From positions 1,237 to 65,236 of the forward strand of contig JADFXX010000006.1 in NCBI GenBank assembly GCA_015233335.1: a stretch of DNA of 64,000 nt, given 5' to 3'. Below the pieces are notes generated by a model. It was not told the origin of the DNA. It did not search any database and worked only from the letters and a program-made list of their open reading frames with translations. Positions 3,001 to 63,250 of this stretch are shown here, piece by piece; position 1 is the stretch's first letter; the number at the start of each line of letters is the position of its first letter. The stretch comes from Candidatus Omnitrophota bacterium (GTDB lineage Bacteria > Omnitrophota > Gorgyraeia > Zapsychrales > Fredricksoniimonadaceae). Position numbers and translations under genes: made by a program.

Positions 3001-4527
3001 ACTGCCTGAGGTCAGGACCGCCCCTGACGGAGACACTGTAAATTGCGATGCCGGCCCCACCGCAAACATATTCCCCGGCAACACTGTCCCGATGCCGACG
3101 AGAGTGCCTGTCGAAAAGACATTGGTATTGATCTCTGTCCAGCCGCCGCTTGAACTGACCCCTGTCAAGCCCGCCCCGTTACCGACAAAAGCGATCGCCT
3201 TGACCGTGCCGTTGACATCCAGCGCATAGCCGGGGGATGCGGAGCCTATGCCTACATTGCCGCCATTGGTAATGCGCATGACTTCGGCATTGTTGGTCAG
3301 GAATCTTATGTCCGGTGTTGTCGCCGCAGATGCCGCTATCGAGGCCTTGTTGTCACTGCCTAAATTTAATGCATTTGTTCCTAAAATCCTTACGGTTCCA
3401 TTCACATCAAGTGTCTGACCCGGTGCCACTGAATTGATGCCCACGTTGCCGCTGACCGTTGCCAAATATGTGTTGCCTGTTACTGTCAAAGTACTAAATA
3501 ATGAAGAGCCTGATGTAAATGTCAGGCCTTCTGTAACATTCAAAGTCCCGATCGTCGCTTCCGCCAAAAACGCTGTCCCATCTACTTCCAAATCATGCTG
3601 CATATAGACATTGCCCGGACCTGACTCAAATAACGGGAAGGCTCCCGGTGTTGTGGATATGTCCAATAACGCCTGCGGTACTGCTGTCCCTATGCCGACA
3701 TTATTTGAAAATGTGGTAATCCCCAGCAACGTATTGGCGCCGGCCCCTGTTTGTGTATACCCGCCCGCTGTTTTGATAGCACCTGACGGAGCCACCTGAA
3801 ACTGTGATGCCGGACCTACGGCCAATAGATTTTGCGGAGCGTTTGTACCCACCCCGAGATTGCCCGCAAAGGCATTGATACCGGCCCCGGTTTGCGTATA
3901 ACTTCCTGAGGTTGTTACCGCACCCGTCAATGACACCGCAAACTGCGATGTCGCGCCAACCGCCAGCATACTTCCCGGCACAGTCGTCCCGATGCCTACA
4001 TTGCCGGAGGTCGTCGCCAAAAATGCGTCGTGCAAAACTGTTAAAGTATTAAAGGTCGAGCCTGAGGTTGAGATGCTCTGCCCCCCTGATATCGTCAAAG
4101 AAGCGATCGTTGCCTCTGCCAAATACGCCGTCCCATCGACTTCGAGATCGTTCTGGATATAGACGTTACCGGCCCCTGACTCAAAGGTAGGGCCTGTTGA
4201 ACCTGTTGAAATATCCAATAACGCGTGCGGCACCCATGTGCCGATACCCGTATTGCCGTTTAAAACCACCATCGCCGTGCCCACCCCCACATTGCCATGG
4301 ACAAACAGATTACCGGTGGAGTCGACCCGGGCGACTTCAGATAAATTTAACTTCTGAACGGAAAATCCGCTTGTGCCGTCATTGGAATCCAGCTGGGCTT
4401 GTATGTCTGCGGCTTGAACTGATGCGGGTATAATAAAAAGAATAAAAAGAAAAAATCGGAAAGCGACTCCTGCAATATCATTGCAAAGAGCATTTTTCAG
4501 CAGCGAAGCAATCTTTTTAAAATTCAT
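1..4527 (-). CDS. Giant secreted fibre/beta-helix-like repeat protein, N-terminal 1509 codons (3' end lies beyond window start)
   Basis: Absent from the ORF track because no stop codon falls in the window. Manual translation from ATG at 4527 gives MNFKKIASLLKN...FFLFILFIIPASVQA (signal peptide). At least a dozen GNVGIGT/GNTGIGT motifs follow, with recurring GGWTEI(N/G)TNV(F/Y)T.GT.VGIGT modules. The last in-window codons read ...LDNGNGYVGIG. The + strand ORFs here (PIPTLP repeats) are antisense shadows. Confidence 0.8.
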   Translation of the reverse strand, partial: MNFKKIASLLKNALCNDIAGVAFRFFLFILFIIPASVQAADIQAQLDSNDGTSGFSVQKLNLSEVARVDSTGNLFVHGNVGVGTAMVVLNGNTGIGTWVPHALLDISTGSTGPTFESGAGNVYIQNDLEVDGTAYLAEATIASLTISGGQSISTSGSTFNTLTVLHDAFLATTSGNVGIGTTVPGSMLAVGATSQFAVSLTGAVTTSGSYTQTGAGINAFAGNLGVGTNAPQNLLAVGPASQFQVAPSGAIKTAGGYTQTGAGANTLLGITTFSNNVGIGTAVPQALLDISTTPGAFPLFESGPGNVYMQHDLEVDGTAFLAEATIGTLNVTEGLTFTSGSSLFSTLTVTGNTYLATVSGNVGINSVAPGQTLDVNGTVRILGTNALNLGSDNKASIAASAATTPDIRFLTNNAEVMRITNGGNVGIGSASPGYALDVNGTVKAIAFVGNGAGLTGVSSSGGWTEINTNVFSTGTLVGIGTVLPGNMFAVGPASQFTVSPSGAVLTSGSYTQTGSGINSFSGNVGIGSVSPAYNLDVNGTVKATSFIGGGAQIMGVTTAAGWTEIGTNVYTTGTNVGIGSTSPSHALDVQGSVYLSGNMGIGVTNPAAKLNVVGGIQSGSIFGNTSYNAFFNEKVGTGSVVAWAFDVVNNGVSYNNNLVMDRGTVGIGIAPSSTGYPDTLNVGGTGYFSGNVGIGTSAPSAQLQVGSGNPAFFTSIPSSEFIQNDLEVDGTAYLVDATIGNLTVTSGITLTTGSALFNTLTVTGPTYLATTNGNVGIGTVLPAQKLDVIGSVKAISFIGNGTQITGVTTGAGWTEIGTNVYTTGTNVGIGTVSPGNLLAVGGASQFAVSPAGSISTSGSYTQSGTGANTLTGNTAFNASPISATFAGNVGINSVAPGQMLDVNGTVRITGTSSLNLGSDNTAAIAPSASTTPDIKFVANSAEAMRIANTGNVGIGSATPAYKLDVNGTVKAIAFIGNGSGLTGVSSGGGWTEINTNVFTVGTLVGIGTTTPGNALDVRGTVYLSGNVGIGTQAANSAALAVFNTGGFGISLDGATLFNNMSFAPTTNFTGISYDKTKQNLVFDSNNNGPQLLLGPNGNVGIGTSAAAVQLQVGAGAPQFFTAGAGSEFIQNDLEVDGTAYLMEATIASLTITSGLTLTGGSVFDTLTVKGNTFLATQTGNVGVGTTLPSQKFDVEGTAYFNSNVGIASISPSHALDVQGSTYFGGNMGIGSTSPSHALDVQGSTYFGGNVGIGTTAPPSALTTFAQANPNVTSIDTGNGGSPVLYHIANTFNSMNVTTASGINNVSDLNYVYINPSVPISSVLGMTNIVTVPSTNSTVWNATITGFRSSASNYGSAFTGTLNGGSFAASNNGGAANLGTVTGMSILASIGGSAVSTSNLVYGLNVSVINNNSSATVNNLYGIYIQGIDTSGGVINNPYDIYASDASASNYMAGSLGIGMYSPVYTLDLNGGSSDIGDSSAGVLTLQGQGGSVATQHNILDNGNGYVGIG

Positions 4528-4681: not shown

Positions 4682-6397
4682 TTATATAATTTGCAATGTT
4701 TGAAGCTTTAAAAGAAGATCACGGGCTTTTATAACCGCATTTTCGGATGATCCGCCATATTCCAGAAAAACACAAAATGCGATATTCTCTTTTTTAGGAG
4801 ACCGGGTATATCCGGCAAACCACGCATGGTTAGGTTTTCCATGGACACTTTGAGCCGTACCTGTTTTTCCGTAGATCTCTAAGCCCTTGATATCCCTCAA
4901 AGAATGGCCTGTTCCTTCCTGATCATCCACCACCGCTTTTAAGCCCTTCTCTACCGCATCCCAAGTTTCATCACGCAAACGGACAATGGGCCTTTGGGAA
5001 AAGTCCAAAGGAAGAATTTGCCGCTCCCCTACCGCTTGGACCAAACGCGGGCGCAGGATCACTCCCTTATTGGCAACAGCGGCCATCAGCACCGTTAACT
5101 GCAGGGGCGTTGTTAACGTGTACCCTTGCCCTATGGACAGGTTAAGGGTGTCTCCGGTATACCAGCCCAGACCCTGAGGGGAACTGGTGATGAGCTTGCC
5201 GCTGGCTTCAAAAGGCAGATCGATTCCTGTCGGCCGATTAAGCCCAAAGGCTTTTGAATAAGCGCCGATGATAGGGGCGCCTACAAGCTCTCCTAAATGA
5301 AAAAAATAAACATTGCAGGAGCGCGCCAGCGCACCCGTCAAATCCTGAACACCGTGGACATGCGAACATCCGAATTTCCGATGCCCTACCATCATGTATC
5401 CGGGACAATCAAATCTCGTCGAAGGTGTGATCTTATGGCGCTCAAGGGCGGCTAAGGCGAGCGGGATTTTAAACACCGAACCCGGCGGGTACTGGCCGGA
5501 TACCGCACGGTTGAGCAAAGGGGTCTCGGTGTCTTTAAAATAAACATCCAGATGATCGCGTTTATTCTTGTTGGTAAATACATTCGGGTCATAGGAAGGG
5601 GAACTCACCAGACACAAAACATCCGCACGGTCTAATCCCAAGACCACAATGCTTCCCCTTGAGCCTTTGAGCAATTCCTGGGCGGCCTCCTGAAGCCGCT
5701 GGTCGACTGTTAAGGTAACATCAAGGCCACCAACGGCGTCCTTAAGCCCAAGCAGGCGCACCTGACGGCCCCGGCTGTTGATCTCGATCTGACGGCCGCC
5801 GGGAGTGCCCTGAAGATCGGCATCATATTCATTCTCGATCCCGGTCTTACCGACGATACTTAACGGTGTCACCCCATAGAGGTCCTGGTCCTGCAACTGG
5901 GTGTCATCGATTTTTCCGACATACCCGAGTATATGCGCCCCTATGTCATCCTTCGGATAAAAACGCTGGAAGCCCTGCTGGATCTCCAGTCCCGGATAAA
6001 GGAATTTTTCTTCTTCGATCTTGACCGCCAGCTCACGCGGGATATCTTCCGCCAGAATGACAGGGGCAAAAGGAGCTGTTTTTTTGCGCAAAAACTGGCG
6101 CTCAAGCAGCGCCGGATCACGATTGAGCACGCGTCCTAAATAATCAAACAATACCTTTTTGTTTTCTATGTCCTGAGCGATAACCCCCAAATGAAAAGCC
6201 ATGCGGTTATCCGCAAGGACGATGCCGCGACGGTCAAGGATCCTGCCGCGCAGGGCATCAGAGACGACAACACGAATGCGGTTGTTGGTGCTCTGGCGAT
6301 GATAATAGTCGCCATGAATGATCTGCAGATAAAACAACCCGCCGACGATCAGGCTTAAGAAGAAAAAAATAACGGATTCGATCAATTTAAAACGCAT
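4682..6397 (-). CDS. mrdA: Penicillin-binding protein 2 (elongasome transpeptidase)
   Basis: 571 aa with an N-terminal TM anchor. Carries SxxK (SVFK), SxN (SCN) and KTG (KTGT) motifs. Directly downstream of an MreD-like gene. Confidence 0.9.
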   Translation of the reverse strand: MRFKLIESVIFFFLSLIVGGLFYLQIIHGDYYHRQSTNNRIRVVVSDALRGRILDRRGIVLADNRMAFHLGVIAQDIENKKVLFDYLGRVLNRDPALLERQFLRKKTAPFAPVILAEDIPRELAVKIEEEKFLYPGLEIQQGFQRFYPKDDIGAHILGYVGKIDDTQLQDQDLYGVTPLSIVGKTGIENEYDADLQGTPGGRQIEINSRGRQVRLLGLKDAVGGLDVTLTVDQRLQEAAQELLKGSRGSIVVLGLDRADVLCLVSSPSYDPNVFTNKNKRDHLDVYFKDTETPLLNRAVSGQYPPGSVFKIPLALAALERHKITPSTRFDCPGYMMVGHRKFGCSHVHGVQDLTGALARSCNVYFFHLGELVGAPIIGAYSKAFGLNRPTGIDLPFEASGKLITSSPQGLGWYTGDTLNLSIGQGYTLTTPLQLTVLMAAVANKGVILRPRLVQAVGERQILPLDFSQRPIVRLRDETWDAVEKGLKAVVDDQEGTGHSLRDIKGLEIYGKTGTAQSVHGKPNHAWFAGYTRSPKKENIAFCVFLEYGGSSENAVIKARDLLLKLQTLQII

Positions 6398-10191: not shown

Positions 10192-11598
10192 TTATCCTCC
10201 GTTAACTGTTTTTTTCAGGACCACCAATCCCAAATCTTTTAACTGTTTAGCATCCACATCAGACGGCGCGTCCGTCATCAGGCATGTCCCCTTCTGGGTC
10301 TTGGGAAAAGCAATGCAGTCCCGGATGGATTCATGGCCTGTGATGATGGTCACAAGACGGTCAATGCCGTAGGCGACCCCTGCATGGGGCGGCGCGCCGT
10401 ATTCAAAAGCCTTAAGCAAAAACCCGAAGCGCTTTTCTGCCTCCTCGGGGGCGATTCCGATCGTGTCAAAAATCTTCTGTTGTAATTCCCGACGGTGGAT
10501 ACGCACCGACCCGCTGCCTATCTCATTGCCGTTTAAAACCAGATCATAACAGCGGCCGCGGATTTTGTCCAACTCCCCGGCTTCAAAGCGTGGCAGATCC
10601 TCAGGGTTGATCCCCGTAAAGGGATGGTGCTCAGAATCCCAGCGTTTTTCTTCGTTATTATACTTGAACAAAGGAAAATCCACAACCCACAAAAAGGCAA
10701 ATTCTTTGGGGTTATTTTTGTCCTGACGCGTGTCCGGTTTATCGGAATTATACCGGGCCATCGCCTCGGCATGGGTGATCCGGCCAAAAGGGATCGTCAG
10801 GTCGATATTCAATACTTCTTTAAATATTTTCTGATACATGCGTTCGGTCAAACTCAGGACAAAATCCTGGTCGACAAAAGACATTTCCATATCCAGCTGG
10901 GTAAATTCCGGCTGGCGGTCGGCACGCAGGTCCTCATCGCGGAAACATTTGACAATCTGATAATAGCGGTCCATCCCCGACACCATAAGGATCTGCTTAA
11001 ACAATTGCGGCGACTGGGGAAGAGCGTAAAAAGTCCCGGGATTTAGTCGGGAGGGAACCAGAAAATCGCGGGCCCCTTCGGGCGTTGATTTAGTCAATAC
11101 CGGCGTTTCGATCTCGGTAAATTTCTCGCCGTTTAAAAAAGACCTCATGGAGGCGCAAAGCTGATGGCGCAGGATCAGAGAATCCCTCACTTTTTTGCGG
11201 CGTATGTCGAGATAACGATAGGTCAGACGCACATCTTCGGCCGCCTCGATATTGTCATCGATCTCAAAAACAGGGACACGAGCGGTGTTTAAGATCTCGA
11301 GCTTTTGGGCCAGAAGTTCAATGTCTCCGGTGATGGCGTCGGGATTGACGTTCTTAGGCGGCCGGACATTGACCGTGCCTGTGATCTTGACGACGAATTC
11401 CGGGCCCAGTTTCTGCGCCTCGTTATGGGCATCAGGGCTGACCGAGGGGACAAAGACCACCTGGGTAATCCCGTAACGGTCGCGGATGTCGATAAAAATA
11501 AGTTTGCCGTGGTCACGCCGGCGATGCACCCAGCCGCAGAGCGTCACTTGCTCATCTTTAAAATTCTTATTCAATTCTCCGCACGTATGCGTTCTCAT
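10192..11598 (-). CDS. aspS: Aspartyl-tRNA synthetase, bacterial-type but short (468 aa)
   Basis: Bacterial-type N-terminus MRTHTCGEL...CGWVHRRRDHG. Class II motif 2 FRDEDLRADRQPEFTQLD and motif 3 GVAYGIDRL. The insertion domain between SDKPD and HHPFT is missing. Confidence 0.9.
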   Translation of the reverse strand: MRTHTCGELNKNFKDEQVTLCGWVHRRRDHGKLIFIDIRDRYGITQVVFVPSVSPDAHNEAQKLGPEFVVKITGTVNVRPPKNVNPDAITGDIELLAQKLEILNTARVPVFEIDDNIEAAEDVRLTYRYLDIRRKKVRDSLILRHQLCASMRSFLNGEKFTEIETPVLTKSTPEGARDFLVPSRLNPGTFYALPQSPQLFKQILMVSGMDRYYQIVKCFRDEDLRADRQPEFTQLDMEMSFVDQDFVLSLTERMYQKIFKEVLNIDLTIPFGRITHAEAMARYNSDKPDTRQDKNNPKEFAFLWVVDFPLFKYNNEEKRWDSEHHPFTGINPEDLPRFEAGELDKIRGRCYDLVLNGNEIGSGSVRIHRRELQQKIFDTIGIAPEEAEKRFGFLLKAFEYGAPPHAGVAYGIDRLVTIITGHESIRDCIAFPKTQKGTCLMTDAPSDVDAKQLKDLGLVVLKKTVNGG

Positions 11599-11613: not shown

Positions 11614-11758
11614 CAGCGGGTCCTGTCTAGGCCTTGATGTTAAGGTGCTCCTAATTAAAATGCGTACGTTACAGCCTTATAGAACGGAGATCCCCTTGTT
11701 CGCCCTAACATCAGTCACCGTCCGCCCCTTAACATCAATTCCGAGCCACCCGCCGCCG
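11614..11758. repeat. Family A structured intergenic element, copy 1 (divergent subtype)
   Basis: Termini GCGGGTCCTGTC.../...GCCACCCGCC. Helix CCTTGATGTTAAGG / CCTTAACATCAA. Conserved AAGGTGCTCCT. Lies between the hisS stop and the aspS start. Confidence 0.75.
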
Positions 11759-18609: not shown

Positions 18610-18639
18610 TTATAGCCTTTGTAACACTACGCAAGCGGG

Positions 18640-18861
18640 CTGCAGGGATAGGATTGTTATTTTTAACTCACTGTCATTTTTAGTTAAAAATTCGTTACTT
18701 TTTGGGGAATCCCGAGCCGAAGGGCGAGGGATGTCTGAACTTGCTTGAGCTCTTTATTTCCAGGGAAATAAAGAGCGAGTTGTTCAGACACCCAAAAAAT
18801 AATGAATTTTTGACGTTAAAAAAATGACCGTGAGTTAAAAATAACAATCCTATCCCTGCAG
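18640..18861. repeat. Family B nested-hairpin element, copy 1
   Basis: Outer stem ctgcagggataggattgttatttttaactcac / gtgagttaaaaataacaatcctatccctgcag. The conserved core is shared with 35094-35334. Confidence 0.8.
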
Positions 18862-18882
18862 CCTCACCGCAAATTCTAGGAA

Positions 18883-23125: not shown

Positions 23126-24028
23126 TTACAAATCGTCCTTATTGAATTCCTGCGGGATGGGACAGGAAAATTCAACAAAAGCTTTGCGGATGGGATGTAT
23201 AAAACCAATACTTTGCGCATGCAGGGCCAGGCGCGGGAAACTTTCTTTTCGGCCGTATTTTTCATCTCCTAAAATCGGATGGCCTAAATGTTTCATGTGG
23301 ACACGCAGCTGATGCGTGCGTCCGGTTTGGGGAAAAAGTGCCACTAAGGTCGATTTAGAAAAACGCTTAAGCACCTCGTACAAAGTCAGGGCCTCCTTAC
23401 CGCCGCCTTCTTGGGCGATCTGGCGTTGGTCGTGGTATTTTCGATGCCGCTCCAAGGGAGCTTCAATGATCCCCTCGTCAAACTGCACGCTTCCCTGCAC
23501 GCGGGCCACATAGCGCTTGATGACCGTATGTTTTTCAAACTGCCGGCCTAAACGGGCGTGGGCCACATTGGTCTTGGCAATGAGGATCAGACCCGAAGTG
23601 TCACGGTCCAGCCGATGCACAATGCCGGGCCTCACCGGACCGTTGATATCGGACAATTCTTCCTTAAAACGGAACATCAAACCATTGACCAAGGTGCCGC
23701 TCTGGGAACCGCTGGCCGGATGCACGGTCAGGCCCGCAGGCTTGTTAATGACCACCAAATCCTCATCTTCATAAAAAATATCCAGGTCCATTTTCTCGCT
23801 GGGAATGTCTTTAGGGGCAAATGCCTCTTCCTTAATATCAACTTCGATACGGTCCCCGGCATTCACTTTATATTTGACCTTCTGCAGGCGGCCGTTGACC
23901 CGGACCTGGCCGGCCTCGACCATTTTTTTGATGAATACCCGCGAAGGCACTTCGGGAATCGCATTGGCCAGATAAACGTCCAAACGTAAATCCCTATACT
24001 CCTGAGGCACTGTCAGTGTTTGTTTCAT
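23126..24028 (-). CDS. rluD: 23S rRNA pseudouridine synthase RluD-like
   Basis: N-terminal S4-like domain and catalytic HRLDRDTSGL. Confidence 0.88.
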   Translation of the reverse strand: MKQTLTVPQEYRDLRLDVYLANAIPEVPSRVFIKKMVEAGQVRVNGRLQKVKYKVNAGDRIEVDIKEEAFAPKDIPSEKMDLDIFYEDEDLVVINKPAGLTVHPASGSQSGTLVNGLMFRFKEELSDINGPVRPGIVHRLDRDTSGLILIAKTNVAHARLGRQFEKHTVIKRYVARVQGSVQFDEGIIEAPLERHRKYHDQRQIAQEGGGKEALTLYEVLKRFSKSTLVALFPQTGRTHQLRVHMKHLGHPILGDEKYGRKESFPRLALHAQSIGFIHPIRKAFVEFSCPIPQEFNKDDL

Positions 24029-24747
24029 TTTTTAAATGCCCTCATCAATATCAAACCCGCGGTAAAAACACCTAAAGCCACATATTGGGCCAGACTCAAC
24101 CCCCACCAGACCATGTCATGGTCGGCCCGATAAAACTCGACGATAAAGCGCTCTAGGGCCGCCAGCCACAGATAAAGAATAAAAATAAAACCGGGCTCAT
24201 ATTTTTTTTTCTGGGCCTCTTTAAGAATTAAAAAGATCAAAAAAAGCCCGGCCGTTTCATACAGCTGGGTCGGATGCAGGCGGGCCCCGTGCACCGGATA
24301 ATAGATCCCCCATGAGACGCTCCTGCCGTAACAGCAGCCGTTAAAAAAACACCCGATGCGGCCGATCGACTGGCCCAAGGCGATATAGGGGGCAACCAGA
24401 TCCATCACCGGTTTTAAGAAAAGCTTTTTACGGCGGGCAAACCACACCCCCGCCAACGTCCCTCCTAAAAATCCACCCTGCCAGGCCAGACCGCCTTTTT
24501 GCAGCATCAGCATTTCCATGAGATTATTGCTGTAATAGGACCATGTGATAAAAATATAAAATATCCTGGCCCCGATGATCCCCCAAAGCATGCACCAGAA
24601 GACCAGATCATACGCGGTGTCCTGAGAGATGTTGTAGCGGGCGGCGTCACGGCTTAATAAATACGTGCAGACCAAAACGGACAAGGCCAGCATGACGCCG
24701 TAGCTGTAGATGGTGAAGGATCCGATCGTAAAAAGTATAGGATGCAT
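24025..24747 (-). CDS. lgt: Prolipoprotein diacylglyceryl transferase
   Basis: 240 aa polytopic protein with HPTQLYE and GRIGCFFNGCCYG motifs. Confidence 0.9.
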   Translation of the reverse strand: MHPILFTIGSFTIYSYGVMLALSVLVCTYLLSRDAARYNISQDTAYDLVFWCMLWGIIGARIFYIFITWSYYSNNLMEMLMLQKGGLAWQGGFLGGTLAGVWFARRKKLFLKPVMDLVAPYIALGQSIGRIGCFFNGCCYGRSVSWGIYYPVHGARLHPTQLYETAGLFLIFLILKEAQKKKYEPGFIFILYLWLAALERFIVEFYRADHDMVWWGLSLAQYVALGVFTAGLILMRAFKK

Positions 24748-24791
24748 GGTTTTATGGTTCTTTGTAGTTTTATGCTGGTCAGGTAATCTAT

Positions 24792-24980
24792 GTGCGTGGG
24801 ATGGAAGGGCAGCTATTATGTTTTCGGAACATTCGGGGATTTTTGGCCAAAAGTTTGCGAGGATTTACAACAAATTTTTTCCAAATGAAGAGAATCTTTA
24901 GAAAAAATTTGTTGTAAACCGAAGCAAACGGCCAAAATATCCCGTTCCGAGAACATAATAGCTGCCCTTCCATCCCTGCA
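24792..24980. repeat. Family C foldback element, copy 1
   Basis: Arms gggatggaagggcagctattatg... / ...cataatagctgcccttccatccc. Apical loop ccaaatgaagagaatctttag. Lies between the lspA stop and the lgt start. Confidence 0.8.
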
Positions 24981-25010
24981 TGACGTACCCATTTAAAATC
25001 CCAAAAAACT

Positions 25011-25487
25011 TCATTTTGATGCCGGGATACATCTTAACAGAATTATCGCGGCACCGATAGTGATCGCGCTGTCGGCCACATTGAAGACCGGCCAGATACG
25101 AAAATCAATGAAATCAATCACGTAGCCTAAAAAGATGCGGTCGATCAAATTGCCGATGGCCCCGCCTAAGATCAAGGAAAACGCAATGACGTAGGTGCGG
25201 CTAAGCTGGGGGCTGTTACGGTAGTAATAAATATTATAAATCAAAAGACCGGTCAAGATCACAGGGATGATGATGAAGACTGCCCCGCAATCCTTGAAAA
25301 ATCCAAAAGCAATACCGGTATTGTGGACTAAGGTAAAATGAAAAATATTGCGGATAACCGCAATCGACTCATTAAGGTCGAGAAATCCGGAAAAGAAATT
25401 CTTGGTCAGACGGTCTAAAAGGACGACCCCTGAAACCCCTGATAAGAAAAATATAATGTCCCACTGGGAACGCTTGGGATCTCGCAT
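25011..25487 (-). CDS. lspA: Lipoprotein signal peptidase II
   Basis: 158 aa with NTGIAFG and FNVADSAITIG motifs. Confidence 0.9.
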   Translation of the reverse strand: MRDPKRSQWDIIFFLSGVSGVVLLDRLTKNFFSGFLDLNESIAVIRNIFHFTLVHNTGIAFGFFKDCGAVFIIIPVILTGLLIYNIYYYRNSPQLSRTYVIAFSLILGGAIGNLIDRIFLGYVIDFIDFRIWPVFNVADSAITIGAAIILLRCIPASK

Positions 25488-29630: not shown

Positions 29631-29772
29631 GCGGGGCCTGTCCTTAGCCTCAATACTAAGGTGCTCCTCCGTCGGGGGCTGCCCTGACGGAAGCTCCGAT
29701 GGTGGTTTGCCCTCAACCGCCCCTTTGAACAGGGGCCGTGCGCGCCTTAGTATTGAGGCTAAGGACACCCGC
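29631..29772. repeat. Family A structured intergenic element, copy 3
   Basis: Termini gcggggcctgtcc...ggacacccgc. 20-bp helix ccttagcctcaatactaagg / ccttagtattgaggctaagg. Lies between the proC stop and the mtnP start. Confidence 0.8.
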
Positions 29773-35044: not shown

Positions 35045-35093
35045 ATGTACAAAGAAAAGTAGTGCCTGTCCCTACTTTTTAAGCGTTTCCTTG

Positions 35094-35334
35094 CGTGCAT
35101 TGCAAGTGATAAATTTGTTATTATGAGCGACCTGTCATTTTTTAGTCAAAAGGTCTTTATTTTTTCGGGAATCCCTCGACTTTTTTGTCGAGGGATGGCT
35201 GAACTTGTTTGTGCCTTAAAGTTCCAGAGAACTTTAAGGCGAGTTGTTCAGCCACCGAAAAAAAAAGAGCTTTTGACGTTAAAAAAATGACCGCGAGCGA
35301 ATAATAACAAATTTATCACTTGCAATGCATGCGC
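35094..35334. repeat. Family B nested-hairpin element, copy 2
   Basis: Outer stem gcattgcaagtgataaatttgttattatgagcg / cgcgagcgaataataacaaatttatcacttgcaatgc. The conserved core (gtcattttt..., ggaatccc..., ctgaacttg..., cgagttgttcag..., ttttgacgttaaaaaaatgacc) is shared with copy 1. Confidence 0.8.
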
Positions 35335-43753: not shown

Positions 43754-43895
43754 GCGGGGCCTGTCCTTAGCCTCAACATTAGGGTGCTCCTCAGGCGAGG
43801 GCAGACCTAAAGGAAGCTCCAATAGTAGTTATCCCTTAATCGCCCCCTTGTGCAGGTGCCGTGCGCGCCCTAACATTGAGGCCAAGGACACCCGC
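43754..43895. repeat. Family A structured intergenic element, copy 4
   Basis: Termini gcggggcctgtcc...ggacacccgc. Helix ccttagcctcaacattagg / cctaacattgaggccaagg. Confidence 0.8.
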
Positions 43896-43978
43896 TGATC
43901 CTCGTACTTATAAAGCTTTTGATACTACTTCTTTAAGCCTAGCAAAAATTTCTTGATCAGGCAAGTCATCTTGAAAAA

Positions 43979-51146: not shown

Positions 51147-54100
51147 TTATTTCACTAATTCATAAAGCGCCGGGACATTCTCCGGTGTCAACGGCGATAT
51201 CCTACGAATGATCGACGTCAAGCCGTTTAAATTCAGCATGGCCTTGTCCTGGAATTGCGGAGGCAGGGGCATCCCTGCACCGTCGACTTTGATGTTAATC
51301 GTCAAGTTTTCGTCGCTTAAGTTGATACCACCGACGTTCTTATTCAAAGGATTCATCGCCGGATTCACCGGTGCCGCAGGTGCGACTACCACAGGAGCCG
51401 GCACAACAGGAGCGGCTGGCACAGGCGCAAGACTTGCCTTAACAACAGGACTTGCATTGATCATACTGCCCATGTTTCTTAATCCATTCCTCTCGCGCTC
51501 CAACTGCCTATTTAGTCTTTTGTTAGCAGCTTCAAGCGAAGCTAGACTATCCTCAGCAGCCGAGACCGCGGCATTTAATAATGTGTCGTTACGATTTGGA
51601 ACTGTTAACCCAATCAGCTGACCTGTGACATCATTTCTTGTTTTTACGATCGTTCCTCTTTTAGCATTTTCAACCTGATCAACTAAAGCGGCGACTTGAT
51701 CTTTTATATCGACCTTCTTGCTGCCGATACTACGACCAAGCTTTGCGTTGATCTTTGCTGTCTTCACAGCCGGAGTGATCGTTTTATCAGCGAGAATACC
51801 ACTCACTATATCCCCTAACCTAGCATTATAATTTTCAATCTCACGGTCCAAGTCTTCCTGTACCTTTCTAGCTTGGGCTTGTTGGGCCATCATATTTCGT
51901 CTAATTTCTAGAACACCTGTCTCGTTGAAGCCATTTAACAATGCCCTTTGGGTTCCCGTAGTTCTATTCCAGGCTGTCAAATGACTAAAGGCAGGAGACG
52001 CTTTTGTTCCCGCCGCTATTGCCGATGCACGTGCAGCTTCTACTCTTTCACGTTCATCTTGGATATCACGCAAATACTGCCCAACATGGGCTCCTGATTT
52101 AAACTCTTCTTCAAAAGTAACCCCATGTTCGAAAGCACCTTTGGCTACAGCCAAAAGATCATCTCGTTTGACTGTTTTCTCGCTTTCAGTAAGGGCTGTG
52201 TCGCGATTCACTTGTGCTATCGCATCTCTGAAGGCCTTGTCTATAGCGTTGACGCTGTCCCTCAAGACACCGACATTTTTTGCATCAACTTGGGGAAGAT
52301 TCTGAATATCAGATTTCACCTGGCTGATCTGTTCATCCACATCTCTTAGTTCTGCCTGAAACCTGAGAACTCGGGCCCTGGAAGCATCAACTTCCTTTGC
52401 TAGATCTCTCCACTCGGGAGTATTCCGAAAATTTGCTTCTTCAATACCTTGGGCCTGTTGATCTCTGACCCATTGATCACGTTTAGCCTCTGAGCGGCTC
52501 AACACGCCTCTAACCTGTTGCAAAACATCATCCCTCTGCTTGCGCAGTTTAGTTAAGTCATCCAGCTGTCCGGTCAAACCTACAACGAGAAGCTTAGTTC
52601 CGGATGCCATGCTTTTAATTTGGTCTTCCAAGTCTCTGACTTTATTACTCGCTGCAATCACTTGCGGCGCAAGCGCGTCATTTATGGCTCTGGTATTATT
52701 AGGATTGCTCGCCAAAGCGAACAATTGATTATATTGCGCCCTTGCCGCATTTAATTGAGCTTGTAAATTATGCAGCGATGTTTGAGTAGCGGCAGTTGCG
52801 GCGGGTGTCGGCGTCGGCGTCGGAGTTGGTGTCGGAGTTGGTGTTGGTGTTGATGTTGATGTTGCTGCCGGCGCCGGTGCTGCCGACGGTAAAGCGGTCG
52901 CAGGCACAAAAGGAATACCCGCTCGAAGCGCTATAATTTCTTGTTCAAAATTATGGTGCTTTAACCTTAACACTGATTCTCGGGACTTGGATGCATCAAT
53001 TGCATCCTGAGTTGGTGCTGCAGCTCCTGATTTCGCCACTTGGTTCTGCATTTCTGCCAAAGTCTCGGTTTCAACAGCCCTAATCCCTTGTCTTAAATCT
53101 CTAATTCTTCTTTCAACACGTCTTTTTTCTCTATCTTCAGCTATTTTTAAATTGCGTTCCAGAACCCCTTTTTTCCCTATAAAGAAGCTTAGGAATTTAT
53201 CCTTTGCACGAGACAGCATTGAATTACATTTTGCCAAGGCATCTTTTGTAGCTGCTATTTGTGCGGCTCCAACTTCCCCTTGCCTCTGGTTTTGAGCAAG
53301 TCTTTCTTCTACAACAGGCAAAGGTTCTTCTGCATTTTTCTTCGTCCCTGCCCTATATGAACCATAAGCACCGGCGGCCCCTACAAGTACCAACGCGGCT
53401 AGTCCAAACTCTAAAGCTCTTTCTCGAGTTAGGTCATTTTGAACAGTCGCTACCAGTTTTTGTTCGTCCGCAATTTTTGTCTGGGTGAGTAAATTATCAG
53501 CTTTACTTTTTGCATCTGTCATGTTATCCAGCTGAGTTTGAAGACTCGAGATATCTTGTTCTTGGTCATCAAGTTGTAGCTTTTGGGAAGCATTATCAGC
53601 TATAAGCCCGTTGATTCTATCGAGATCTGCTTTCTTTTCTGCATCAGTTCTTGTTTTGTCATCTACTATCTGCTGTTTAGCCGCTGCAAGATTCTTAGAT
53701 GCATCTGCAAGCTGCTGTTTGCTTGTCGATAGATCACCTTTCAATCCTGTTATTTGTGTATTAAGATTTGTTCTTTCCGTTTCGAAATTCTTTTGTTGTT
53801 GATTATAGGCTTGAACATCTTGGGCGTGTTTCTGCTGTGCTACTGTCAAGAGACCATTGACCCTGTCTAACTCTGCTCCGGGCACCATATGCGATATTTG
53901 GTCCTCTAAACCTGCAATTTCTATGGTATCTTGATGCACGGTATTCGCTAAAGCTTGTATGGCCTCTGCATCACTTTGATGCTGAGCATTTAGATTAGCA
54001 ATTGTTGCCTTCATCTCTCTTTTGATGGCACCATCGGATTTTCCGCCAAACACGACCCGGAAAGTTCCGCCAATATTATCTACTATTACCTGCTCACCCA

Positions 54101-55715
54101 AATTCCCACCATAATCTACCACATGTCCTACCTGTACCAGTACCCATGGACCAGCTTTATCTCTGGTAAAACGATATACCCCTCCTGCCGCGTCCCATGT
54201 AAGTTTAGCAGCACCAACTGTTAATTCACCGACTGCCACAATAGGCACAACGATGATCTCACCGGTCCCGGTAACAAATAACTGAACATTCTTTAATTGT
54301 TCACGGTTGGAACCCACAAAACCTGCATACTGTTGATCTTTTGCGGCTTCTTCCGGCGTAATTTTTCTCCACATACTTTTACCAACATTATCCAAACCGT
54401 CTTGAGCTAATTTGAAAGTAAGCGGTCTATTGTCGGCAGGAGCTGTTGCGGTTGCGGGAGTGCCTGCAAAAACCTTACCAGACAAAGTTGCAAAAAGGGT
54501 AGCGACCATTAATATTCTGGCAGTTTTGCCCGCCATGGCACCTAATATCCGTGTTCCAAAACTCCGGCGCTCTGTGGTGACCCTTGCCCTCTCTTCAACC
54601 GGTAATGAGGCCATCGCATTTTCATTATAGCCCTTTACTCCTTCGCTAGGCGTCATGATCAACCCGCCCGAAAAATATTTCCTCGGGATCACCTGGCCGT
54701 CAGGGGTCGGGTCTTCTTTAATAAAGTTAAACACACCTTTTTTGTAGGCCCTTAAATACTGTTGATATATTTTCTCTTTAGCCTGCGGGTCATCCACCTG
54801 CTGGCCTGCTACCTTTGATTTATTTGCGAAAACTTGTCCTAAAAGGCTTTCTCTAAGCGTCTTTTTGAACCATGTGGCCATGATCTGTGCGTTATAAGCC
54901 TGACGGACAGCGGCAAAACTCTGGCCCTCATTAACTTCCTTCTCGATCGCCGGGATGATGATCTCACGAACGATGTCGGAGGCCATTTTTGTTTTTGCAT
55001 CAGCTATAGCATCTGTATTTGCCGGCTGAGCGCTGCCAAACTGTTCTTTATTTTTCTCTATGGCCATGTAGTCCTGCTCCAGCATGACCTTCAGATGGCT
55101 GGCCACTAAAAATGCGGTGTCATCTTTCTGATAAACATCCGCGTGATCAGCTACGATCCACACCTTATTAAAGGTATTGACATTGATATCGGTGGTGCCG
55201 AAACGGGCCTGCGCTTCACTGTAAACTTTTTCCCAAAACTTTTTACCTAAGCCATCTTCCGGATACATTAGGGAAGCTGTGAACTGCTTGAGGATATAGT
55301 CCTGAGCTAAAAGATCACGGCCCATTTCAGTTTGGCCAAAAATTTCAGGGATGAGACGGTTGGATTCATAAGGAGAAAGGTTGACCCACATGTCCTGATT
55401 AGGCATAGCCAAAGAAACCAAGAAATATTTAATGATCTTATTAAATTCATCTTTCTTGGCATCATCAGACATCGGGTTTTCGCCCTGATCCATAATAAAA
55501 TTAAAACTAAATGGATCCTTAAGGTCGACCTTAAGGCCCACCATTTGAGGCGGCTCAAAATGATGCGTGACATGGATCATCTGGCCAGGAGGAGGCATAA
55601 TGATCTGCACCTGTGCATAACTGGGCTGGGCCGGAAGCATCGCGGCAAACGCAGTCAAGACCGTAAACGCAATAACGCGAAATAACGGGGATTTTCTAAA
55701 GGTGTTTGTTCTCAT
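51147..55715 (-). CDS. Giant secreted/membrane-associated coiled-coil protein with conserved N- and C-terminal modules
   Basis: 1522 aa. Signal peptide and a ~350-aa globular N-domain (PPQMVGLKVDLKDPFSFNFIMDQGE...WVNLSPYE...GRDLLAQDYILKQ). Two internal hydrophobic segments and >900 aa of Q/K/D/A-rich coiled coil. (TP)n linker. C-terminal VGGINLSDENLTINIKVDGAGMPLP...module. Confidence 0.8.
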   Translation of the reverse strand: MRTNTFRKSPLFRVIAFTVLTAFAAMLPAQPSYAQVQIIMPPPGQMIHVTHHFEPPQMVGLKVDLKDPFSFNFIMDQGENPMSDDAKKDEFNKIIKYFLVSLAMPNQDMWVNLSPYESNRLIPEIFGQTEMGRDLLAQDYILKQFTASLMYPEDGLGKKFWEKVYSEAQARFGTTDINVNTFNKVWIVADHADVYQKDDTAFLVASHLKVMLEQDYMAIEKNKEQFGSAQPANTDAIADAKTKMASDIVREIIIPAIEKEVNEGQSFAAVRQAYNAQIMATWFKKTLRESLLGQVFANKSKVAGQQVDDPQAKEKIYQQYLRAYKKGVFNFIKEDPTPDGQVIPRKYFSGGLIMTPSEGVKGYNENAMASLPVEERARVTTERRSFGTRILGAMAGKTARILMVATLFATLSGKVFAGTPATATAPADNRPLTFKLAQDGLDNVGKSMWRKITPEEAAKDQQYAGFVGSNREQLKNVQLFVTGTGEIIVVPIVAVGELTVGAAKLTWDAAGGVYRFTRDKAGPWVLVQVGHVVDYGGNLGEQVIVDNIGGTFRVVFGGKSDGAIKREMKATIANLNAQHQSDAEAIQALANTVHQDTIEIAGLEDQISHMVPGAELDRVNGLLTVAQQKHAQDVQAYNQQQKNFETERTNLNTQITGLKGDLSTSKQQLADASKNLAAAKQQIVDDKTRTDAEKKADLDRINGLIADNASQKLQLDDQEQDISSLQTQLDNMTDAKSKADNLLTQTKIADEQKLVATVQNDLTRERALEFGLAALVLVGAAGAYGSYRAGTKKNAEEPLPVVEERLAQNQRQGEVGAAQIAATKDALAKCNSMLSRAKDKFLSFFIGKKGVLERNLKIAEDREKRRVERRIRDLRQGIRAVETETLAEMQNQVAKSGAAAPTQDAIDASKSRESVLRLKHHNFEQEIIALRAGIPFVPATALPSAAPAPAATSTSTPTPTPTPTPTPTPTPAATAATQTSLHNLQAQLNAARAQYNQLFALASNPNNTRAINDALAPQVIAASNKVRDLEDQIKSMASGTKLLVVGLTGQLDDLTKLRKQRDDVLQQVRGVLSRSEAKRDQWVRDQQAQGIEEANFRNTPEWRDLAKEVDASRARVLRFQAELRDVDEQISQVKSDIQNLPQVDAKNVGVLRDSVNAIDKAFRDAIAQVNRDTALTESEKTVKRDDLLAVAKGAFEHGVTFEEEFKSGAHVGQYLRDIQDERERVEAARASAIAAGTKASPAFSHLTAWNRTTGTQRALLNGFNETGVLEIRRNMMAQQAQARKVQEDLDREIENYNARLGDIVSGILADKTITPAVKTAKINAKLGRSIGSKKVDIKDQVAALVDQVENAKRGTIVKTRNDVTGQLIGLTVPNRNDTLLNAAVSAAEDSLASLEAANKRLNRQLERERNGLRNMGSMINASPVVKASLAPVPAAPVVPAPVVVAPAAPVNPAMNPLNKNVGGINLSDENLTINIKVDGAGMPLPPQFQDKAMLNLNGLTSIIRRISPLTPENVPALYELVK

Positions 55716-57923: not shown

Positions 57924-58064
57924 GCGGGGCCTGTCCTTAGACTCAATACTAAGGTGCTCCTCCGTCGATGGCAACCCTAACGGCAGCTTCTACGGTAGTT
58001 CCACTTAACCGCCCACTTGGGCAGGGGCCGTGCGCGCCTTAGTATTGAGTCTAAGGACACCCGC
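57924..58064. repeat. Family A structured intergenic element, copy 5
   Basis: Termini gcggggcctgtcc...ggacacccgc. Helix ccttagactcaatactaagg / ccttagtattgagtctaagg. Confidence 0.8.
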
Positions 58065-58119
58065 TAATCCTTGTACTTATGAAAAGTAGCGTCTTCCCTG
58101 CTTTTTGTCAGGTAAGCTA

Positions 58120-58309
58120 TGTGCGCGGGATGGAGGTACAGCTATTATGTTTTTGGCACAATAAGGAATTTTTTGCCAAAAGTCTTCTTAATTTTACGGC
58201 AAGAATGTTCCAAATAAAGAGAATCTTTAGAACATTGTTGCCGTAAATTTAATAAGACGGCAAAAATATTCCGTGGCGAAAACATAATAGCTGTACCTCC
58301 ATCCCTGCA
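58120..58309. repeat. Family C foldback element, copy 2
   Basis: Arms gggatggaggtacagctattatg... / ...cataatagctgtacctccatccc. Loop ccaaataaagagaatctttag. Confidence 0.8.
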
Positions 58310-58338
58310 CGGCACACCCATTCAAGATTTAAAGAGCG

Positions 58339-62217: not shown

Positions 62218-62820
62218 TTAGAGCAGGTACAGGATTGAAAATAAAAAGATCCAAATGATATCCACAAAATGCCAATAAAGACCGGCCACTTCAAGGCGAT
62301 TGATGAACCATTGTTTATTGATGGTCCTCAATCGGGTGCCGGGGCCGGCATAATAAATATTGATCCCGATGCCGGCCAAGATGTGTAAGGCATGCAAACC
62401 CGTTAACAAAAAATAAAGGGCCAGAAAAACACTTGTTTTAGGGTATTCCTGACGGCTGAAATGTTGGTAATATTCGATCCCCTTGAAAAACAAAAAAAGA
62501 CCAGCCAGGGATATCACCCACCACATCAGTCTTTTATATTTGGCCAAATCATCCGCTTTCAATGCAACCCAGGCGCGTATGAAAAATATACTGGATGACA
62601 AAAGAATAACGCTGTTCAATGCGCCTATGGGGACGTTCAGATAATCTGATTGCTGAGGCCATGAAAAAGATCCCACTCTTAGAAGGATATACGCAGAAAA
62701 CAGCGAGCCAAAAAGCATGATCTCTGAAGCTAAAAAAAGCCAGAGCCCAAACTTGGCATTATAAAGCCCGGTATCTTCGCGGGCTTCTACTTTATATGGA
62801 ACTAGTTCTGTGTCATGCAT
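62218..62820 (-). CDS. ctaE: Cytochrome c oxidase subunit III
   Basis: 200 aa with five TM segments and YWHFVDIIWIFLF motif. Confidence 0.85.
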   Translation of the reverse strand: MHDTELVPYKVEAREDTGLYNAKFGLWLFLASEIMLFGSLFSAYILLRVGSFSWPQQSDYLNVPIGALNSVILLSSSIFFIRAWVALKADDLAKYKRLMWWVISLAGLFLFFKGIEYYQHFSRQEYPKTSVFLALYFLLTGLHALHILAGIGINIYYAGPGTRLRTINKQWFINRLEVAGLYWHFVDIIWIFLFSILYLL

Positions 62821-62837: not shown

Positions 62838-63023
62838 CGTGGGGCCTGTCTTGAGCCTCAACACCAACTGGTCCCCCCTGCTTTGGTCGTTAACGACCAA
62901 GGGGGGATTAAGGTGCTCCTCCTCCGGGGACAGCCCTGACGGCAGCTTCAACGGGGGTTTCACTGGACTGCCCACTTGGGCAGGTGCCGTGCGTGCCTTA
63001 ATATTGAGGCTCAAGACACCCGC
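62838..63023. repeat. Family A structured intergenic element, copy 6 (with nested ~45-nt hairpin insertion)
   Basis: Termini cgtggggcctgtc...agacacccgc. The helix cttgagcctcaa...attaagg / ccttaatattgaggctcaag is interrupted by cccccctgctttggtcgttaacgaccaagggggg. Confidence 0.8.
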
Positions 63024-63068
63024 TCTTTGCGGTAATACTGAAATATGTTAAACCATTGCTAATCATTA

Positions 63069-63250
63069 GCAGGGATGGATAGCTGCTATTATGTATTCGG
63101 CACATTAAGGAATTTTTCGCCAAAAGTCTTCTTAATTTTACGGCAAGAATGTTCCAAATAAAGAGAATCTTTAGAACATTGTTGCCGTAAATTTAAGAAG
63201 ACGGCGAAAATATTCCGTGCCGAATACATAATAGCAGCTATCCATCCTTC
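63069..63250. repeat. Family C foldback element, copy 3
   Basis: Arms gcagggatggatagctgctattatg... / ...cataatagcagctatccatcc. The core is nearly identical to copy 2. Confidence 0.8.

Follow-up and report, generated by a model that had tools for sequence, protein, structure and literature searches.

Three near-perfect foldback elements in a 64,000-nt stretch of contig JADFXX010000006.1 from a Candidatus Omnitrophota bacterium (assembly GCA_015233335.1) belong to a previously undescribed family of small non-coding hairpin repeats, which lie between genes in many Omnitrophota genomes. We call this whole stretch the window. Omnitrophota is an uncultured, ecologically widespread phylum, and a full-text literature search with the phylum name and repeat terms found no description of dispersed repeats in Omnitrophota among its 15 top-ranked matches. 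[quoted passage not shown] Mobile, 'junk-like' DNA is the most likely reading, in preference to a dedicated regulatory RNA. Comparison of orthologous junctions revealed that copies are gained, lost and replaced between genes, and the three tests able to show selection at the RNA level came out neutral or against RNA.

The hairpin family and its bulged core

The three foldbacks, each ~180–190 nt long, had been recognized as one family in an initial annotation made from the sequence alone, and their sequences, inverted arms and folds confirm both their positions and their kinship. In each copy, two arms of ~85 nt pair almost perfectly and enclose a 21-nt loop, CCAAAT(A/G)AAGAGAATCTTTAG, which occurs three times in the window against a chance expectation of 0.02. 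Folded as RNA, the three copies reach minimum free energies of −106 to −115 kcal/mol (z = −15 to −18), which none of 200 shuffles matched, and copy 2, the focal element, folds as single-stranded DNA with −74.6 kcal/mol (z = −18). Copies 1 and 2 also have ~20 nt of non-palindromic flank in common on each side (24778–24999 and 58107–58328), so the repeated unit of their subfamily is ~222 nt. A covariance model (CM) of the central 143 nt detected no further copy in the window. The parts of the three copies are as follows.

58107–58328, plus strand: copy 2, full repeated unit (repeat-family detection and alignment; CM match of 140 bits at 58145–58287)
58127–58159, plus strand: copy 2, basal (outer) stem, 5′ arm GGGATGGAGGTACAGCTATTATGTTTTTGGCAC; inverted repeat, 94% complementary to 58273–58305
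58160–58181, plus strand: copy 2, mid-stem core, 5′ half, with bulge AATAA, helix GGAATTTTTTGCC and bulge AAAA (alignments)
58182–58209, plus strand: copy 2, inner helix and apical stem, 5′ arm GTCTTCTTAATTTTACGGCAAGAATGTT (inverted repeat and alignment)
58210–58230, plus strand: copy 2, apical loop CCAAATAAAGAGAATCTTTAG, family-wide the most frequent apical module
58231–58272, plus strand: copy 2, 3′ arm of apical stem and inner helix, and core 3′ half (GACGGCAAAAATATTCC) (sequence and alignment)
58273–58305, plus strand: copy 2, basal stem, 3′ arm (inverted repeat with 58127–58159)
24778–24999, plus strand: copy 1, full unit; hairpin 24798–24976, loop 24881–24901; CM match of 163 bits
24798–24830 and 24944–24976, plus strand: copy 1, arms, 97% complementary
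63069–63250, plus strand: copy 3; hairpin 63073–63247, loop 63154–63174; CM match of 155 bits
63073–63103 and 63217–63247, plus strand: copy 3, arms, 100% complementary

The pattern and CM searches suggested by the initial annotation brought out many more copies. A first scan searched one genome of each species for the exact loop and returned 49 matches in 48 loci, from 11 metagenome-assembled genomes (MAGs) named Candidatus Omnitrophota or 'uncultured Planctomycetales'; the 'Planctomycetales' MAGs are syntenic with Omnitrophota MAGs at ~85–90% protein identity. Forty-eight of the matches are the element, each a complete hairpin of the common design. One match, on a Woesearchaeota contig (L010; L numbers denote fetched loci), was discarded as chance, as no element surrounds it. 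Within the fetched loci the CM added three divergent copies, each with a different apex. Because this first set had been chosen by its loop, we scanned metagenomes again with the right-hand core pattern GACGGCNAAAATATYCCGT. The returns included ~30 chance matches in unrelated coding sequence, and viral contigs contained no match to the pattern. The two scans together yielded ~110 non-redundant elements from uncultured Omnitrophota genomes and metagenomes; we read ~8–15 kb around each copy, ~1.2 Mb in all. One MAG, JADFXH, holds at least 13 exact-loop copies and 3 divergent ones. At ~190–222 nt, multi-copy and without a conserved open reading frame (ORF), the element resembles MITEs (50–500 bp) in size, non-coding content and copy number.

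Comparison of the copies showed that the invariant part of the element is its bulged mid-stem core. Identity between copies is 83–87% in this core, 70–75% in the apical stem and 40–51% at the ends. It is in the basal stem of ~30 bp that the family varies most: identity over the terminal ~30 bp is 51% within an assembly and 40% between assemblies, 29 of 42 copies have their nearest basal-stem neighbour in the same assembly, and JADFXH carries at least three unrelated basal-stem types on one core. The core itself is asymmetric, with 5′ ...ACATTCAGGGATTTTTNGCCAAANGTCTGCGAGGNTTTAC on one arm and GTAAACCGAAGCAGACGGCNAAAATATCCCGT on the other. Its fixed asymmetries are three bulges: ATTCA (5 nt) and AAAT (4 nt) on the 5′ arm, and a single nucleotide on the 3′ arm. 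The alignments place these bulges in all copies, and helix 2 is 99% paired with five covarying pairs. A 5 × 5 internal loop, GAGGA/CCGAA, is usual in the mid-stem; copies 2 and 3 have exchanged it for paired sequence (GTCTTCTTAATTTTAC/GTAAATTTAAGAAGAC).

The apical stem is variable and 14–17 bp long, and is usually topped by the loop CCAAATRAAGAGAATCTTTAG. The 21-nt loop that the initial annotation called conserved is indeed common to the three window copies; family-wide it is the commonest of several interchangeable apical modules, with at least six others found on the same core (for example, ...GCCGCGAATGCCTTATCGCGATAGC..., AAATCTGTTCATATACCAGTGCTGCTATAAAACAGATTT and CCGTTACACCTCCCGGAGGTGTAACGG). 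The exact canonical loop was present in 35 of the 105 full-length windows of the core scan, a set that includes the ~30 chance matches, and many others differed from it by 1–3 changes. A mini-stem proposed within the loop, AAAGA-GAA-TCTTT, never covaries and therefore has no comparative support. We also considered a small apical ORF of 10–13 codons (a Shine–Dalgarno-like GAGGA followed by ATG...TAA) and rejected it, as its ATGs are not conserved: the loop has ATA instead in many copies, and the apical stem of others contains no ATG.

Compensated stems and the level of selection

Pairing and covariation statistics place it beyond doubt that the hairpin is a maintained feature. Across 45 sequences, 98.4% of cells were paired and 30 of 57 pairs had changes on both sides, in line with the compensated differences between stems that had been noted initially. 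Double-change cells numbered 316 versus 103 ± 7.5 in shuffles, and none of 500 shuffles reached the observed value. Sliding the structures by 1–3 columns left only 39–46% pairing. Full-length RNAalifold analysis found compensatory changes in 40 of 68 pairs. The whole unit thus folds as a hairpin with compensatory changes, as REPINs do. In the apical helix the extent of change had been overstated, at about 8 of 17 positions; copy 1 differs from copies 2 and 3 at 6 of 17 positions per arm, of which five are compensated and one leaves a G.G mismatch.

A self-complementary DNA repeat would be expected to show such compensation just as much, provided that only its foldable copies propagate. We therefore turn to features that distinguish the two levels. 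G-U-type mismatches were equally rare on both strands, with 75 on the plus strand (G:T) versus 59 on the minus strand (A:C), and grouping the copies by the strand of their neighbouring genes left the symmetry in place (46 versus 41 and 18 versus 13). Covarying pairs switch between Watson–Crick types almost without G-U intermediates (in one example, CG 24, AU 20 and UG 1). Copies occur in both orientations: between co-directional genes, the complement of the loop lies in the mRNA sense in 46 cases and the loop itself in 25 (p = 0.017). The structure-selected RNA implied by the initial annotation is accordingly not borne out, as mismatch symmetry, scarcity of G-U intermediates and use of both orientations are each neutral or against it. 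The strand specificity of Rfam-type RNAs, with fixed orientation and G-U tolerance on one strand, was not observed, and Rfam at gathering thresholds returned no match in the window.

The position of the elements relative to genes is not random. As initially claimed, they sit just 3′ of stop codons: the hairpin ends 26–35 nt from the upstream stop codon in the three window copies, and family-wide it starts a median of ~15 nt after the preceding stop codon and ~44 nt before the next start. The flanking genes are mostly co-directional or convergent (10 convergent versus 2 divergent contexts among ~83 copies scored on both flanks). Bacterial intergenic repeats usually show such 3′-proximal, non-divergent placement, which could stem from purifying selection that spares promoters, from a preference for certain targets or from use by the host.

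One alternative reading makes the element a host-selected cis-acting RNA that, once transcribed within an operon, would serve as an intercistronic RNase III processing site or as a 3′ stability barrier and so tune the neighbouring cistrons. The conserved bulges and loop would then be protein-recognition features. The position ~15 nt after stop codons, the near absence of divergent contexts and the 46:25 orientation bias are consistent with this explanation, as are the location of the window copies inside the lspA–lgt and cox/bc operons and the retention of the bulges and internal loop across species while the helices covary. Effects of RNase III and RNase E on mRNAs are also known for Correia and ERIC repeats (PMC10969869). 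However, 35% of copies have the opposite orientation, neither strand has an excess of G-U pairs, and G-U intermediates are almost completely lacking. In relatives, the same junctions are element-free, with genes 3 nt apart or overlapping. The apical modules are interchangeable, truncated copies occur and no Rfam family matches. Effects on RNA of the kind described could furthermore arise as a by-product of a mobile repeat, without selection. We therefore consider a dedicated cis-acting RNA unlikely.

We regard an independently transcribed small-RNA or hairpin-precursor gene as highly improbable. In such a gene the variable stems would serve as guide or antisense sequences and the core as a scaffold, which would suit the modular architecture of a conserved scaffold with variable helices. 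The only Rfam similarities, obtained in E-value mode, are to long, generic plant and animal precursor-microRNA hairpins; these scored 35–62 bits, far under the gathering scores of 84–195. The variable stems fall into a few subfamilies common to copies and genomes rather than into diverse guides, and copies lie inside operons in both orientations. No promoter- or terminator-like signal accompanies the element in or beside the two copies scanned, copies 1 and 2: no sigma-70-type promoter match was found inside either, and the single terminator match is a 5-bp stem within copy 1 (24952–24940, minus strand) rather than the long hairpin. For copy 3, the sequence itself was read. None of the long hairpins is followed by a U-tract on either strand, which upholds the initial statement that these are not simple intrinsic terminators.

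By analogy with REP/BIME sequences or with Correia elements and integration host factor (IHF), the elements might instead be DNA structural or binding sites, at which a nucleoid protein, gyrase or a recombinase would act on the cores or on a cruciform. The host would use such sites for chromosome organization or for handling replication or transcription stress. The occurrence of either orientation, the maintenance of Watson–Crick complementarity only, the strong single-stranded DNA fold and the dispersal of copies in intergenic DNA, clustered with other repeats, would all fit. Yet in an ordinary DNA duplex the conserved, bulged asymmetry of the arms would mean nothing, position-specific roles are at odds with the presence/absence and replacement seen at orthologous sites, and no binding-site consensus was identified. 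We consider this explanation improbable.

Insertion and turnover at intergenic junctions

The genes beside all three window copies lie on the minus strand, and Pfam agrees with the initial naming of lspA, a cytochrome b/c fusion gene and coxI among them. Copy 2 is flanked by the cytochrome b/c fusion gene and ctaA; the genes around the other copies are as follows.

25011–25487, minus strand: lspA; 24025–24747, minus strand: lgt; copy 1 lies between them
from 63276, minus strand: coxI; 62218–62820, minus strand: coxIII; copy 3 lies between them

The three window junctions lack the family in the closest fetched relatives, and the copies are thus insertions. The lspA–lgt spacer is 263 nt in the window versus 13, 15, 53 or 66 nt in relatives, which comprise seven contigs of four lineages with the synteny ileS-dksA-lspA-lgt-rluD and Lgt proteins 80–83% identical; the protein collection contained no closer strain of the window organism, the next Lgt being 83% identical. 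For the cox/bc genes, three relatives (L176, L177 and L178) have the order coxI-coxIII-x-coxII-Rieske-cyt b/c-ctaA-ctaB, with cytochrome b/c proteins 75–79% identical. The spacer between cyt b/c and ctaA is at least 365 nt in the window; the two genes are 3 nt apart or overlap in L177 and L178, and L176 has no element there. Between coxI and coxIII the spacer is 455 nt in the window and 3 nt in L177, and the gap of 164 nt in L176 contains an unrelated 148-nt foldback. The initial annotation had named recent insertion of an annotated MITE with target-site duplications, seen in related genomes, as evidence against its view. All three junctions are indeed element-free in relatives, and neither an annotated MITE nor a target-site duplication was found.

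Similar presence/absence differences, as known for MITEs, were seen at a minimum of seven further junctions, each filled in one genome and element-free in another. Filled and element-free loci include L037/L012, L027/L030, L015+L034/L048 and L032/L029. At other junctions the element is present in two genomes (L014/L021, L030/L046, L114/L123, L081/L126 and L167/L173). In four of these pairs (L014/L021, L114/L123, L081/L126 and L167/L173) the flanks are 71–88% identical and the basal stems are different, and three of the four pairs also differ in apical module; in L030/L046 both the basal and the apical stems differ. Decay is evident as well, in a copy internally deleted between GTTGT repeats (L021:4470–4540) and in several solo right halves. 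A small hairpin (ATTCCCTGTT...AACAGGGAAT) is nested in one arm of copies at L047:6693–6903 and L056 (oriented ~10700–10830), which indicates that elements insert into one another.

Other repeats share these intergenic sites. The sequence CTGGATTCCCG(N6–9)CGGGAATGACA, a short REP-like hairpin, comes directly after the studied element, on its right, in 12 of 107 copies (L058, L097, L103, L115, L125, L161, L163, L171 and others). Its side and orientation never change, and it is sometimes present as a tandem; it could be a repeat that accompanies the element or a target into which the element inserts. About 8 copies have on their left the ends of a second foldback family of ~230 nt (...ACAAATTTATC.CTTRCAATGCA); these ends directly abut the studied element in L017, L024, L027 and L033, and the L030 junction has a full copy of that family where L027 has the studied element. 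The window contains two copies of the ~230-nt family (18638–18863 and 35093–35332), with basal arms of 44–51 bp that are 86–98% complementary and a conserved interior of 138 nt with an inner hairpin (GAGGGATG.CTGAAC...GTTCAG.CACC). Their basal arms differ from one another, the same design as in the studied family.

A third repeat family, of ~128–135 nt, lies directly upstream of minus-strand genes in the window (57932–58059, 29639–29767, 11624–11748, ~43781–43915 and 62909–63043). Its 25–26-bp stem (TGTCCTTAGACTCAATACTAAGGTGC / GCGCCTTAGTATTGAGTCTAAGGACA) closes a branched interior of 75–77 nt, with an RNA fold of −75 kcal/mol (z = −5.7). Twice it stands between the studied hairpin and the next start, those of ctaA and coxIII, and it overlaps the predicted TTG start of ctaA. 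A promoter or leader could be carried by this family, and a weak sigma-70-like match lies at 57974–57946. Its GCGGGTG... relatives were seen in L030, L101, L094 and L156.

The lspA–lgt and cox junctions of relatives also carry unrelated hairpins (L054:590–657, L055:704–771, L051:2947–3001, and L176:2384–2531 and 4758–4901). One has a 20-bp stem, GGGACACTCAACATAACC...GGGTATGTTGAGTGTCCC, and another reads GACACTGAC...GTCAGTGTC followed by GTCATCCTGAG; the 148-nt foldback is present twice in L176, once in each orientation. Different palindromic elements thus seem to have colonized the intercistronic junctions of this clade repeatedly. Elsewhere in the window, positions 1–4200 are dense in diverged direct repeats with periods of ~69–141 nt and multiples and have only short plus-strand ORFs, an appearance that suggests repetitive protein-coding sequence or the decayed remains of a repeat-protein region.

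Repeats of this kind affect how Omnitrophota genomes are read. Many contigs end inside a copy (L006, L015, L034, L070, L074, L075 and others), and a junction that is unbroken in the species of L048 is divided between L015 and L034; the repeats therefore break short-read MAG assemblies. They also inflate intergenic spacers within core operons. With their excellent covariation statistics they can pass for structured RNAs, and such near-perfect, compensated stems formed by mobile palindromic DNA call for caution in covariation-based RNA discovery.

Proposed mode of spread and comparison with known repeats

If the elements are mobile DNA repeats, new copies would be made in trans by an enzyme encoded elsewhere, which may read the bulged mid-stem of the folded single strand rather than the termini. 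Recognition is probably at the core, as a single genome combines one and the same core with several unrelated basal stems. Only well-paired copies would propagate, which would account for near-perfect hairpins despite differing stems and would not need selection on RNA. Recombination between copies inside the conserved core could shuffle the apical and basal modules. The host would be affected through insertions in the lspA–lgt and cytochrome oxidase/bc operons; with elements inside operons, polycistronic mRNAs should carry ~85-bp duplexes, potential RNase III or decay-barrier sites. A host role at this level, in which operon transcripts are processed or stabilized as a by-product or by co-option, is unlikely.

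We searched for the remains of transposition around the copies. A 3-nt direct repeat brackets 40 of the 110 copies, where 17 would be expected, and no direct repeat is 6 nt or longer; the element ends are fuzzy, and the available empty sites were too diverged to align with filled junctions. The excess probably reflects a recurrent GCG/TGC flank motif. A 9-bp direct repeat around copy 3 (TCATTAGCA / TCACTAGCA) was likewise set aside, being explained by the flank motif CAT(T/G)(A/C)G / CAC(G/T)(C/A), which recurs around other copies. Across copies there are no conserved termini, and so no shared terminal inverted repeat of the MITE kind, despite the complementary ends within each copy.

We then looked for an autonomous parent. 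The ~1.2 Mb of loci contained no left and right cores separated by cargo, and the only recurrent ORF cluster at distance 0 was the translated element itself. No protein family, including RAYT or another transposase, recurs within 3 kb of the ~110 copies. A paralogous protein domain near 5 of 48 loci, similar to window positions 51147–55715, was dropped, as it had no Pfam match and no fixed distance to the element. In the window, a 1522-aa ORF without a Pfam match lies at 51147–55715 (minus strand); its N-terminal ~200 aa have paralogues in L006, L022, L023, L042 and L044 (52–66% identity by tblastx), and the ORF family is abundant and uncharacterized in this Omnitrophota clade.

Several of these results weigh against mobile repeats as the explanation. 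Beyond the 2–3-nt excess no target-site duplication was detected, and neither a parent insertion sequence (IS) or other parent element nor a transposase was found in the fetched loci, so that the mechanism of spread is wholly inferred. Many species retain the bulges and the internal loop of the mid-stem, copies lie strongly 3′-proximal and orientation is biased 65:35 (p = 0.017); each of these features would fit a host function as well. The junctions occupied in two species by different variants could mean that occupancy itself is selected. Finally, both scans were seeded with parts of the element, first the loop and then the right core, and the conservation of these parts is therefore in part ascertainment.

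The variable ends, conserved bulged middle and swappable apex, unlike those of REPINs and classical MITEs, point to a mobilizing activity that reads hairpin structure. Should the cognate enzyme be found, it would form a new element–enzyme pair from a poorly known phylum. It is conceivable, if unlikely, that these elements and the other long-hairpin families make up a distinct structure-recognized replicator, in which the bulged mid-stem is read and the basal and apical helices are exchangeable, or that Omnitrophota have co-opted them as intercistronic processing or insulating signals. Co-option would explain why some junctions stay occupied by changing variants.

Among described repeats, REPINs, which are REP doublets that form hairpins, share several traits with the element. 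They are non-coding, multi-copy, extragenic long hairpins (PMC3116915) in which compensatory arm changes are common and sequence types are partly genome-specific, and they likewise leave decayed singlets or half copies; their copies have no obvious target-site duplication. REPINs have conserved ends and a less conserved spacer and are mobilized by RAYT transposases (Bertels & Rainey 2011, PMC3116915), the Y1 enzyme being encoded by a single-copy gene outside the element that the repeats typically flank; an equivalent arrangement in Omnitrophota is our inference. By contrast with REPINs of ~70–110 nt that end in conserved REP 16–25-mers, the Omnitrophota element is ~190 nt long, lacks REP ends and has the reverse conservation profile, with variable ends and a conserved bulged mid-stem. 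It also occurs in a different phylum, with no RAYT within 3 kb of the ~110 copies.

Correia/NEMIS elements of Neisseria and the ERIC and RU-2 (YPAL) elements of enterobacteria are palindromic intergenic repeats of 100–200 bp (PMC10969869, PMC3184786). These elements are often co-transcribed with flanking genes as long RNA hairpins and show insertion polymorphism between strains, and their effects on mRNA processing provide the best analogy for the copies in the cox and lsp operons. However, the termini of ERIC are conserved, and Correia has conserved terminal inverted repeats of 26 bp together with a TA duplication and an IHF site; for the Omnitrophota element neither conserved termini nor a duplication was found. 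There is no sequence similarity to either, and here the apical and basal modules are exchangeable around the core.

The likeness to single-strand transposition of the IS200/IS605 type, whose HUH/Y1 enzymes recognize imperfect hairpins, is mechanistic only: a folded single strand with extrahelical bases is recognized there and would be recognized here, IS200/IS605 elements lack classical terminal inverted repeats and target-site duplications, and replication direction can give an orientation bias. Those elements have two short subterminal hairpins and a tetra- or pentanucleotide target, whereas here a single ~85-bp hairpin is the whole element, and no such enzyme or target motif was identified for it. 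The classical MITE is marked by terminal inverted repeats that are conserved and by target duplications (PMC10969869). As our analysis found no target duplication, conserved termini, parent IS or linked transposase, the family fits neither the classical MITE nor the REPIN exactly; it is related in kind to REPINs and bacterial MITEs and is a member of neither.

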